Virus record (IMG/VR): IMGVR_UViG_3300025647_003907
DNA length: 20,000 nt
Source: an uncultured virus (IMG/VR IMGVR_UViG_3300025647_003907)
Lineage: Duplodnaviria > Heunggongvirae > Uroviricota > Caudoviricetes
Strand: one strand, 5' to 3'
Part shown: piece after piece, positions 6,848 through 18,381 of the stretch
Position numbering within the stretch: position 1 is the first letter of the stretch
Layout: each line of letters opens with the position of its first letter
Translations under genes and position numbers: made by a program
The notes under the pieces: generated by a model
The model's database searches: none
What the model was told of the DNA's origin: nothing
What the model saw: only the letters and a program-made list of their open reading frames with translations

Positions 6848-6875
6848 ATTATAGCAGATCTTGTTCAGAAGTCAA
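6848..6875 (-). promoter_or_regulatory. sigma70-type promoter for the VWA gene
   Basis: Minus strand reads TTGACT-16 nt-TATAAT with extended -10 TGc; it lies within the last codons of the SGNH ORF. Confidence 0.7.
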
Positions 6876-7622
6876 GACTTTTTTAAAGTCACTGTCCTGC
6901 ACAATAAAATCAAATAGTGTTTTTAAAGCAGTTCTATTTGGGTGAATACCGTCTGGATAGAATAATTCAGGAGCATCTTTAAATTGTTTTATCCGGTTAT
7001 TACCTAAATCAATATCAACGAGCAATTCGGAAATATCGCCGGGATTTTTTGAGTATTTTTTAATAATTTCAACAAACTCATTATTCGCAACAAATTCACA
7101 TAAAATAGGATTATTGATTCTATGATCACTATTTAGAAGAAGATTTGTTGCGCTTTGACAAATAACATTTACTCCTGGATATTCGTTCTTGTTATCAAAC
7201 CAAAGAGCATCGCTGCACCCTCCGATGACGTAAAATGGAATATGATAGAAATTATATAGTTCGTTTAATCTTATATAGAATCGTTCAACCCATCTACTTT
7301 TAAGAGAGGAATATCCATATTTGAGTTCCTCGTGAAGTACTGCTAAACTATTAAAAAGATTTATATTGTAAGCTCGGTAATCACGCCACCACTCGGTTTT
7401 CCATACTATAATGCCTTTAATTTTTTTTCGATAGTGATAATTAATCATTAGAAAGTTTTTTAAACTTTCGTAGGTATCAAAATTTGAGCCGCCTGGTTTG
7501 CTAATGTTTAGAGCATTAACCCCGATGTCGTCAAAATATTCCAGGAAGCCCGGATGGGAAATGCCATCACCAACTTCCTGGAATTCGCCTGCACCCCAGC
7601 TGTCACCAGCAATAAGTATCAT
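6849..7622 (-). CDS. SGNH/GDSL-hydrolase-like protein
   Basis: Block I ILIAGDSWG, block II/III-like NISKPGGSN, block V YPDGIHPN (DxxH). Visibly more AT-rich than its neighbours. Confidence 0.75.
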   Translation of the reverse strand: MILIAGDSWGAGEFQEVGDGISHPGFLEYFDDIGVNALNISKPGGSNFDTYESLKNFLMINYHYRKKIKGIIVWKTEWWRDYRAYNINLFNSLAVLHEELKYGYSSLKSRWVERFYIRLNELYNFYHIPFYVIGGCSDALWFDNKNEYPGVNVICQSATNLLLNSDHRINNPILCEFVANNEFVEIIKKYSKNPGDISELLVDIDLGNNRIKQFKDAPELFYPDGIHPNRTALKTLFDFIVQDSDFKKVLTSEQDLL

Positions 7623-8861: not shown

Positions 8862-9092
8862 CTAGATCATTGAATATAGTAGTTTTTCTGCTACACTATC
8901 TCCGTAATTTTTCTTTAGATCACGCTTAATACCTCCCCAGTCTGCCCAGATTGGGTAGCGAGCAATAGTGTTATTATTAATAATACAGCGAAGTTTATCA
9001 CGGCTAACTGCGTTAAATTCGTTGTTGTGCTGGGCTTCGGCCAAGACGGTATCCCAACCACGGTTAAAAACGGTGGCAAAGTCATAATTCAT
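8862..9092 (-). CDS. Phage hypothetical protein (76 aa)
   Basis: SD AGGAGG upstream; TAAATA motif at 9134-9139 on the minus strand. Confidence 0.75.
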   Translation of the reverse strand: MNYDFATVFNRGWDTVLAEAQHNNEFNAVSRDKLRCIINNNTIARYPIWADWGGIKRDLKKNYGDSVAEKLLYSMI

Positions 9093-9160
9093 TTCTAATG
9101 GTTCCTCCTAGGTTAAAAGAATATTAACAACCGTATTTACACATATTTGTCCAGAATAGG

Positions 9161-9189
9161 TTGATAACTACGTTATTTTTTCTTATAAT
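9161..9189 (+). promoter_or_regulatory. sigma70 promoter of the decarboxylase operon
   Basis: TTGATA (9161-9166)-17 nt-TATAAT (9184-9189). Confidence 0.75.
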
Positions 9190-9222
9190 AATGTACATAC
9201 TTTAAAATTTTTTAATATTCTA

Positions 9223-9230
9223 TATAAATA
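9223..9230 (+). promoter_or_regulatory. T4-type late promoter consensus TATAAATA
   Basis: Exact TATAAATA 77 nt upstream of ATG 9308; the surrounding DNA is AT-rich, so a chance match is possible. Confidence 0.55.
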
Positions 9231-9308
9231 GAATAACTTTTTGTCTACATTTCGATTCGCGTCGGGGTGTGGATTTTTTTATTCTGAAATAAAAGGATGT
9301 AAAAACAA
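9230..9308 (+). promoter_or_regulatory. Structured 5' leader (terminator-like hairpin or alternative anti-SD helix)
   Basis: Stem 9243-9256/9261-9274 with several G-U pairs folds only on the + strand and is followed by T7 (9274-9280). An outer helix AGAATAA (9230-9236)/TTATTCT (9279-9285) is also possible. Confidence 0.55.
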
Positions 9309-9601
9309 TGGAAGCGAAAATGTGGAACGCTCAAGGTTGGGAAACTATTGATACTAAAACAGATTCTCAGCTCGAAAGCGAATATACGGAAATGTTAAAC
9401 GAAGCAGGCTTTAATGTACTAAATTTCGTAGAACATACCTTTGAGCCATTTGGCTGGACAGCACTATGGCTTTTGAGCGAGTCGCATTTTGCGATTCATA
9501 CGTTCCCAGAAGAAAACAAATACTACTGGGAATTAAGTTCGTGCATCGAACAAAAATACGTTGATTTCATCAGAACTAAAGGAGCACATGATGGCGTTTG
9601 A
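9308..9601 (+). CDS. speD: S-adenosylmethionine decarboxylase-like pyruvoyl proenzyme (short form)
   Basis: HTFEPFGWTALWLLSESHFAIHTFPEE carries the E|SH autocleavage site and HTFPE; ELSSC supplies the catalytic-Cys position. Confidence 0.85.
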   Translation: MEAKMWNAQGWETIDTKTDSQLESEYTEMLNEAGFNVLNFVEHTFEPFGWTALWLLSESHFAIHTFPEENKYYWELSSCIEQKYVDFIRTKGAHDGV

Positions 9602-9956: not shown

Positions 9957-9960
9957 AAAC

Positions 9961-9984
9961 AAAAAGCCCCGCTAGGGGCTTTTT
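9961..9984. terminator. Bidirectional intrinsic terminator
   Basis: AAAAAGCCCC-GCTA-GGGGCTTTTT between the convergent decarboxylase and porin genes. Confidence 0.9.
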
Positions 9985-10011
9985 GTTATTTTGATATAAT
10001 GTAAGTTATAA

Positions 10012-13381: not shown

Positions 13382-13540
13382 TTATCGGCGAACTTTACTG
13401 ACTTGTTCCATTTTGGCTAGAACTTGTTCGATTGTGGCTGGATATGCAATAGGTTTGTTATTTTTGTATACAGCAAAGGTGCCGTGTTTTTCGTTTTCGT
13501 AGAAATTGTATTTGTGAACTGAGCCCAAGAATTTAAGCAC
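13382..13540 (-). CDS. Small phage hypothetical protein (52 aa)
   Basis: SD AGGAG 6 nt before GTG 13540 (MLKFLGSVHKYNFYE...), preferred over the track's TTG start at 13579. Confidence 0.7.
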   Translation of the reverse strand: MLKFLGSVHKYNFYENEKHGTFAVYKNNKPIAYPATIEQVLAKMEQVSKVRR

Positions 13541-17919: not shown

Positions 17920-18105
17920 TTAATAGCTGTATCCTGCACTATTTTTGTGCAGATCTAGACTTACTCGAAGTGTGTGATTTTCAGTTTTGAGGTCAAGAAC
18001 GTCCTCTACTAGGTGCTTGAATTCTGGATCAGATTCGTCAATTTCCATGCCGTGGATAATACTAGCAATGCTCAGTAGAGTTTGCTTATAATCTTCGCAT
18101 TCCAT
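17920..18105 (-). CDS. Small acidic hypothetical protein
   Basis: SD AAGGAG upstream; 61 aa. Confidence 0.65.
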   Translation of the reverse strand: MECEDYKQTLLSIASIIHGMEIDESDPEFKHLVEDVLDLKTENHTLRVSLDLHKNSAGYSY

Positions 18106-18126
18106 ACATTTCTCCTTATAGAAAAC

Positions 18127-18150
18127 AAAGCGGGCTTTTTACACCCGCTT
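18127..18150 (-). terminator. Intrinsic terminator-like hairpin
   Basis: Minus strand AAAGCGGGT-GTAAAA-GCCCGCTTT followed by GTTTTC. Confidence 0.7.
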
Positions 18151-18179
18151 TATTTAGCAAGCGTAATATTACCGAAATA

Positions 18180-18317
18180 TTACGCTTTATTTTTGCAGCG
18201 TGGGCTGTTTGGCTTGCGCTCGCAACGAAAAGTACCGTGGCTTACGTGCTTCTTGCTCAGTTTGTTGCCATTTGGGTCGGTCTTGCGATTGCGATGCGGA
18301 ATAGCAGTTTTGCTCAT
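18180..18317 (-). CDS. 45-aa basic protein, not in ORF track
   Basis: SD GAGG, MSKTAIPHRNRKTDPNGNKLSKKHVSHGTFRCERKPNSPRCKNKA; has its own promoter upstream and a terminator downstream. Confidence 0.7.
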   Translation of the reverse strand: MSKTAIPHRNRKTDPNGNKLSKKHVSHGTFRCERKPNSPRCKNKA

Positions 18318-18353
18318 TTTACGTCCTCGGTTATTGTTGTTAAATGAGTGTTT

Positions 18354-18381
18354 ATTATACTACGATTTACAAAAAAGTCAA
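18354..18381 (-). promoter_or_regulatory. sigma70-type early promoter
   Basis: TTGACT-16 nt-TATAAT on the minus strand, 36 nt upstream of ATG 18317. Confidence 0.75.

Follow-up and report, generated by a model that had tools for sequence, protein, structure and literature searches.

A conserved G·U-rich hairpin in the speD leader of an aquatic jumbo phage, probably a leaky terminator at a cassette boundary

The speD genes and their phage

The 20,000-nt stretch of viral DNA analyzed here (the window; IMG/VR record IMGVR_UViG_3300025647_003907) carries two overlapping AdoMet decarboxylase homologs, speD1 and speD2, preceded by a compact leader that contains two promoters and a hairpin (Table 1). 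SpeD1 contains the motif SESH, which we take to be the cleavage site. It is 52.8% identical to the enzyme of Croceibacter phage P2559S, described in the accessible text of one study as a proven AdoMet decarboxylase (PMC9992855). SpeD2 is 36.7% identical to the enzymes of the Sinorhizobium phages phiN3/phiM12, which the same text places among ornithine-decarboxylating homologs (PMC9992855); by sequence similarity, SpeD2 is perhaps a member of this ornithine decarboxylase clade. Pairs of SpeD and ornithine decarboxylase are known as fusions, according to the available part of another report (PMC10407285).

Table 1. Features of the speD leader and adjoining genes in the window.
Feature	Position	Strand	Remark
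TAAATA late-type promoter motif of a divergent 76-aa gene (8862-9092)	9134..9139	-	left edge of the slot
Variable slot, holding the sigma70 promoter alone in the window	9140..9197	.	gene cassettes in relatives
Sigma70-type early promoter, TTGATA-17-TATAAT	9161..9189	+	start site predicted near 9196
A/U palindrome enclosing the late promoter; forms in early RNA	9216..9235	+	not conserved
T4-type late promoter TATAAATA	9223..9230	+	start site predicted at 9235-9237
14-bp G·U-rich terminator-type hairpin	9243..9274	+	lower 7 bp invariant, upper 7 variable yet paired
U7 run (U6 in L074)	9274..9280	+	3' ends of terminated RNAs predicted near 9278-9281
Weak hairpin of 9280-9285 with the Shine-Dalgarno region 9294-9299	9280..9299	+	not beyond chance
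speD1, class 1b AdoMet decarboxylase homolog, 97 aa	9308..9601	+	PF02675, E 1.5e-12
Codons 3-7 of speD1, complementary to the 5' arm of the hairpin (fold B)	9315..9326	+	probably incidental
speD2, second PF02675 homolog, 121 aa	9591..9956	+	E 5.6e-17; ATG also at 9588
Canonical bidirectional terminator closing the speD operon, 13 bp	9958..9987	.	no G·U pairs

SpeD2 behaves as a dispensable cassette and was absent from 3 of the 6 loci that reach its position (L071, L073, and L075). These three loci carry terminator-like sequence directly 3' of speD1, and the window, L079, L080, and L081 share the overlapping tandem pair. Both genes were also found in L100-L102, in reversed order. The genes 3' of speD vary strongly among relatives; in the window, two Gram-negative porin genes (PF13609; 10012-10860 and 11120-11956, minus strand) converge on the operon. 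No spermidine synthase was found in three partial relative contigs, a count that is not evidence of absence. Among other speD2-type genes, L182 has a tRNA gene (1392-1464; Ser, TGA by ARAGORN) between late promoter and coding sequence, with no Rfam match at gathering score. The L100 speD2-type leader has a pyrimidine run just after TAAATA that is complementary to its Shine-Dalgarno (SD) region, an arrangement that, to our mind, resembles T4-type early/late translational control.

The source of the window is a large, aquatic, T4-like jumbo phage. In G001, one of its relatives, a scan covering 48 of the 79 called ORFs identified a gp55-like late sigma factor (E 3.6e-75) as well as portal and major head proteins. 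The ATPase neighboring the locus has its nearest cultured counterparts, at 48.5% identity, in PA5oct-like phages. Sequencing runs containing this stretch were mostly freshwater and estuarine. The closest cellular homologs of SpeD2 (60-64%) include many from Methylophilaceae/OM43 (e.g. L259-L264 and L270-L273), along with Chlamydiae and Verrucomicrobia; the Methylophilaceae/OM43 similarity may be a weak hint to the host.

Related leaders were collected by a pattern scan of metagenome contigs, which returned 12 loci. One of these (L080) equals the window over 3553 nt and two others are the same (L078 and L079). The comparisons below use 8 distinct leaders, each taken from predicted start site to AUG, which include the window and are about 90% identical, and 10 alleles that span the divergent gene through the hairpin. 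The close relatives are IMG/VR contigs of 78-87 kb with an estimated completeness of 22-25%; relative contigs overall range from 2 to 25%. Cultured phages gave no match to the leader, and the hairpin element was absent from the repeat families listed for the window. We found no description of the leader in the literature searched, a search in which subscription papers were largely not included.

Hairpin, promoters, and a variable slot

A preliminary description of this locus had noted a G·U-rich hairpin that folds on the plus strand alone, and both observations held. The hairpin comprises 14 base pairs, 6 of them G·U and 4 G-C, with a predicted energy of -15.3 kcal/mol (z -4.7). None of 200 shuffled sequences was as stable, and the minus strand reached -2.4 kcal/mol. 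Its base is weak (G·U, U-A, C-G, U·G). The reported run of seven U residues was present, but its first U closes the stem and six are free.

The hairpin was kept throughout the 8 leaders. Pairing was preserved in 111 of 112 cells (slid controls, 34-54%), with predicted energies of -13.1 to -16.3 kcal/mol, 3-7 G·U pairs per stem, and 6-7 U residues directly 3' of the stem in 8/8. Seven pairs were invariant, 5 showed one-sided changes, and 2 showed two-sided changes. The covariation score was reached by 12 of 500 shuffles and the two two-sided pairs by 88 of 500, a modest level of support since the leaders are about 90% identical. Substitutions spared the lower 7 bp, including two G·U pairs, and their flanks, although speD1 varied at 10 of 19 four-fold sites. 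The hairpin is real and under selection. It also formed without competition in nascent RNA: for transcripts ending at 9268-9280, the predicted hairpin probability was 0.99-1.0, and for RNAs reaching the U-run the best hairpin-free fold was worse by 11.3 (early) or 13.8 (late) kcal/mol.

The stem contains more G·U pairs than the other terminators of the genome and was the sole terminator-like element with at least four (3 of 23 entries, all homologs). A covariance model of the leader (R1) gave one match per contig in the window, G001, and G002, all partial contigs. Across 100 sources, which included the window and four relative contigs, R1 returned this clade plus 2 weak, unrelated matches (E 0.048). 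Neither 71 bacterial loci of speD2 homologs nor the regions before other speD homologs yielded a match. We also considered a speD-specific family of stems with an ACAC/GUGU core and dropped it: of 35 pattern matches, 28 were listed under a stricter test, and among these just 2 known relatives precede speD. This core is a generic terminator feature, found in unrelated phages. A looser stem pattern had 15 matches, 3 from this clade and the rest unrelated.

Both promoters were located where the preliminary description had put them. The sigma70 site matches 11 of 12 consensus bases and ranked third among the 55 sites listed. In alleles whose slot holds this promoter only, the -10 hexamer was kept in 7/7 and the -35 hexamer in 6/7, at a fixed 81-82 nt from the stem, while the spacer diverged. 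Conservation of the hexamers despite this drift indicates that the promoter is in use. The TAAATA core of the late promoter was invariant in 8/8 leaders, and TAAATA was enriched before genes (25 of 146, against 13.7 +/- 3.3 in shuffled sequence). Its start site was placed by the spacing we assume from T4. The late promoter ends 12 nt before the hairpin, and about 7-8 nt of the predicted late RNA would precede the stem. For the early RNA this would be about 47 nt, the extra 40 nt being A/U-rich and replaced in 3 of 10 relatives. The palindrome around the late promoter has changed arms in L073, L074, L076, L077, and L081. An extension of the stem using 9228-9235 was discarded as not conserved. 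A leader peptide starting at ATG 9191 was likewise rejected; this ATG precedes the predicted start site and is missing in L074 and L077.

The sigma70 promoter lies in a slot whose contents differ among the 10 alleles. The promoter-only form is the commonest (7/10). L073 instead carries inositol-phosphate synthase, an unknown gene, and a QueC-like gene, and L076 a metallophosphoesterase with a GT4 glycosyltransferase, all on the plus strand. In L081, which lacks both the sigma70 promoter and any co-oriented gene, the slot is occupied by a sigma-region-4-like gene on the minus strand. Each of the three filled alleles departs from the window at 9139, with 9140 to 9197-9207 replaced. In addition, three other runs have contigs with loose ends at 9201 or 9209, where the joined sequence resembles those cassette ends, and in two of these runs loose ends also occur at 9121 or 9139. 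From these replacements, and the loose ends in independent runs, it follows that the sigma70 segment is an exchangeable allele. The fixed unit consists of the late promoter, hairpin, U-run, and SD, which none of the 10 alleles has lost, together with speD1.

The co-oriented genes of L073 and L076 stop about 45-50 nt before the hairpin, within the range of most other terminators in these genomes. The preliminary description had stated that the hairpin has no upstream plus-strand gene to terminate. This is correct for the window, where the neighbor at 8862-9092 is on the minus strand, but not for all relatives, since 2 of 10 alleles have co-oriented genes. A reading of the hairpin as merely the terminator of a lost upstream gene was partly right; it was set aside with the promoter-only allele being the commonest and its hexamers conserved.

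Some details of the cassettes are recorded here. The L073/L020 cassette (381-2888; inositol-3-phosphate synthase, a 128-aa unknown, and QueC-like) carries its own sigma70 promoter. The L081 gene (433-804, 123 aa) matched sigma70 region 4 weakly, at an E-value of 2e-4 that fell below the cut-off. The flanks of the ATPase gene (window 6849-7622) are also variable slots, with different genes in L070, L072, L074, L075, and L077.

Alternative folds of the leader

The preliminary description had proposed a SAM-responsive, polyamine-responsive, or thermosensing switch, in which the hairpin alternates with a pairing of 9241-9252 to 9295-9308. The 11 alternative pairs can be drawn and do exclude the hairpin, but they are at chance level and do not provide a usable second state. 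The duplex amounts to -5.2 kcal/mol, a strength that 13 of 209 start regions from other genes match or surpass with the same arm. When the 11 pairs are imposed, the fold is less stable by 12.4 kcal/mol in the window and by 5.3-18.3 kcal/mol across relatives. At 37 °C they are predicted to form with a probability of about 1e-7, and even at 65 °C with no more than 7e-4. In favor of the switch, 6 of 8 leaders can form the full set of 11 pairs, and the two partners show almost no other variation. In the other 2 leaders U9250C breaks one pair, and the same change strengthens the hairpin by turning G·U into G-C. No two-sided change was seen in this pairing. Furthermore, the partner lies 15-28 nt beyond the U-run and therefore cannot prevent termination.

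A spermidine riboswitch class is known upstream of polyamine genes, as the accessible text of its description states (PMC10853860), and would offer a precedent. However, the four-stem aptamer of that class is lacking here. Only about 7 nt precede the stem in the late transcript, and 47 nt of A/U-rich, replaceable sequence in the early one; neither holds a multi-stem aptamer. Rfam searches returned no family at gathering threshold, either for the window or for 9 related loci. A scan of 9080-9400 by E-value produced three chance eukaryotic matches and nothing else. No antiterminator was found in nascent RNA, where the gap is 11-14 kcal/mol; one candidate, 9196-9203 with 9264-9271, was 11.3 kcal/mol worse and by inspection has one pair broken in L074 and L077. 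R1 finding nothing before other speD homologs also argues against the proposal. The two-state model is largely refuted, and we give it almost no credence. What stands is a loose sense of attenuation, namely that a conserved terminator-like hairpin must be read through.

Two further folds involve the start of speD1. A hairpin pairing the end of the U-run with the SD (anti-SD hairpin) was predicted in 8/8 leaders at -3.0 to -4.4 kcal/mol. Such strength is expected by chance, being reached in 50 and 112 of 1000 shuffles and in 48 of 209 other genes. The predicted probability of an unpaired SD rises from 0.001 to 0.021 over 10 to 37 °C. The other fold (B), found post hoc by including the first codons, is a rod in which the 5' arm of the hairpin is paired with 9315-9326 and the SD is sequestered by the U-run, so that neither SD nor AUG is exposed. 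B could form only after read-through. Its ensemble energy relative to the hairpin fold (A) was -0.8 to +1.0 kcal/mol in the window and -2.8 to +1.1 kcal/mol in five more relatives, so that A and B are nearly isoenergetic in 6 of 8 leaders.

This balance could make a compact translational switch of the read-through mRNA, tipped between A and B by polyamine level or temperature. The genes downstream of the leader are polyamine enzymes, and among energy-matched hairpin shuffles without flips just 1 of 43 was equally well competed. On the other hand, chance gave equal competition in 8 of 31 shuffles with flips, in 12 of 185 starts of unrelated genes, and in 37 of 300 synonymous recodings (the 43 and 31 shuffles are the survivors of an energy filter, from 400 each). 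B is disfavored by 2.7-4.0 kcal/mol in L073 and by 7.5-9.2 kcal/mol in L077, its pairing shows no two-sided change and 4 of 88 cells broken, and its coding side is fixed by Met-Trp-Asn. In addition, the SD is predicted to be paired in both A and B, and the leader of the more distant relative G003 forms no competition of this type. We consider such a switch very improbable. The broader proposition, that this leader of about 100 nt acts, without an aptamer, as a sensor of polyamines or of a phage factor, whether by tuning read-through of a weak G·U-rich terminator or by the hairpin/rod flip, also appears quite improbable. If it did, the leader would amount to phage-encoded feedback control of viral polyamine synthesis. 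A response to polyamines would make it both a very small sensor of these compounds and a metabolite-responsive RNA with which a phage meters an auxiliary metabolic operon. Earlier attempts at proving such RNAs fell short, as noted in the accessible portion of the spermidine riboswitch paper (PMC10853860).

Probable read-through of the leader hairpin, and known systems

With confidence a little above even, we interpret the element as a conserved, intrinsic (Rho-independent), and leaky 5'-leader terminator of the speD genes at a cassette boundary. In 8 of 10 alleles there is no co-oriented gene upstream, and both promoters lie upstream of the hairpin; speD expression must therefore read through it, and a terminator in this place must leak. 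In the 2 remaining alleles the hairpin is placed as a normal terminator. It would stop most transcription from the contents of the slot, be it a bare sigma70 promoter or a cassette, and also part of that from the late promoter. The weak, G·U-rich stem would pass a fixed share of polymerases, and this share would make the decarboxylases. On late transcripts the stem may also cap the 5' end. Neither a ligand nor a temperature switch is needed. One metatranscriptome contig (depth 4.8) extends from a cassette end across the hairpin to 9535, which is compatible with leakage and proves no transcript. If the element is an ordinary leaky terminator, it matters little, being one more phage 5'-leader terminator, and the slot would be a clean example of a swap site with a bare promoter among its exchangeable alleles.

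Some results count against a purely ordinary terminator, among them the singular G·U content of the stem, the invariance of its lower 7 bp, and the rarity of the layout of late promoter, hairpin, U-run, and SD. A view of it as routine in T4-like phages failed, as T4 itself has it at 0 of 32 TATAAATA sites. Among TAAATA sites, a hairpin with U-run followed 1 of 61 in G001 and 1 of 55 in G002 (both this element), 2 of 20 in the window, and 2 of 19 in G003; PA5oct has the layout at 13 of 609 TAAATA sites, against 7 of 729 controls. In phage loci led by speD1, 7 of 62 have TAAATA upstream and 4 combine it with a hairpin and U-run, three from this clade and one from G003. G003, whose SpeD1 is 72% identical, has a different hairpin and U-run at the corresponding place in front of its own two speD genes, a hint that the role may be tied to speD. 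A promoter-hairpin-U-SD arrangement also precedes non-polyamine genes, at 18126-18152 (minus) in the window and at 13524 (minus) in G003. The latter lies before a gene that we take to be PstS-like, and the layout is therefore not specific to polyamine genes. The block in the window (18126-18381, minus) consists of a sigma70 promoter, a probable 45-codon basic ORF, a palindrome, TAAATA, the hairpin, a U-rich run, and an SD, and precedes a 61-aa ORF (17920-18105).

Two other readings keep the hairpin and change its task. It may be mainly a 5'-end stabilizer of the late mRNA that terminates little, with the U-run serving chiefly in a translation-damping anti-SD hairpin. The weak stem base would suit this, as would the RNA contig that crosses the hairpin. 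So would the retention of everything from late promoter to SD throughout the 10 alleles, L081 included despite its lack of a sigma70 promoter and of a co-oriented gene. The second G003 hairpin points the same way, in that the upstream neighbor of the PstS-like gene has its own terminator. Against a stabilizer, 6-7 U residues directly follow the stem in 8/8 leaders, the hairpin lies at a terminator's distance from the cassette stops in 2 of 10 alleles, and the anti-SD hairpin is within chance by the counts given above. Moreover, late-promoter leaders of speD2-type phage genes are mostly hairpin-free: 28 of 64 speD2-led loci have TAAATA upstream, and by a strict test 1 of these 28 has a hairpin with U-run. 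We regard a stabilizer as unlikely, though it deserves some weight. Somewhat less likely still is a regulated gate, that is, an efficient default terminator opened stage-wise by a phage antiterminator or RNA-binding protein. Under this reading, early transcription would yield a short RNA of about 85 nt and late transcription one of about 45 nt, either of which may itself act, and the factor would recognize the invariant lower stem. The fixed distance of the sigma70 hexamers from the stem fits a gate, as does the invariance of the lower 7 bp and flanks against the variable speD1 sites, and 5'-leader terminators with two read-through modes provide a precedent in the available text of a phage transcriptome study (PMC10914365). 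Against it, no overlapping small hairpin or box accompanies the stem, the element occurs as a single copy among the 100 sources searched, its ACAC/GUGU core is generic in unrelated phages, and no candidate factor was found in relative contigs that are 2-25% complete.

RNA thermometers of the FourU/ROSE type place a weak, U-rich helix over the SD. The leader described here is predicted to have a similar helix; in contrast to the thermometers, this helix is no stronger than in the 48 of 209 genes noted above, lacks covariation, and is predicted to stay closed from 10 to 37 °C. The spermidine riboswitch, a class of SAM-I variants, likewise has a terminator in a speD-type leader, but combines it with a four-stem, SAM-I-like aptamer and an antiterminator, neither of which the present leader has (PMC10853860, accessible text). 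PeSL elements of T4-like phages resemble it as conserved blocks of promoter, stem-loop, and SD at the edge of a site where cassettes are exchanged among closely related phages. As far as their description is accessible, the PeSL stem-loop lies upstream of the sigma70 promoter and is repeated within a genome, whereas the present stem follows both promoters, beginning 53 nt after the -10 box, with one copy found per partial contig and the sigma70 part as the swapped piece (PMC4122927). For PA5oct, the available text reports sigma70-like promoters and 36 terminators, and no TAAATA motif (PMC7318152). Terminators in phage 5' leaders are frequent where RNA ends have been mapped: in six Pseudomonas phages, 42 were located by ONT-cappable-seq, e.g. 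T102 of phiKZ, according to the accessible part of that study (PMC10914365). The speD leader differs from these in having two promoters, sigma70 and T4-type late, and a G·U-rich stem, and in being known from sequence. It shares with them the order of promoter, short leader, hairpin with U-run, and gene, and both short and read-through RNAs would be expected from it.
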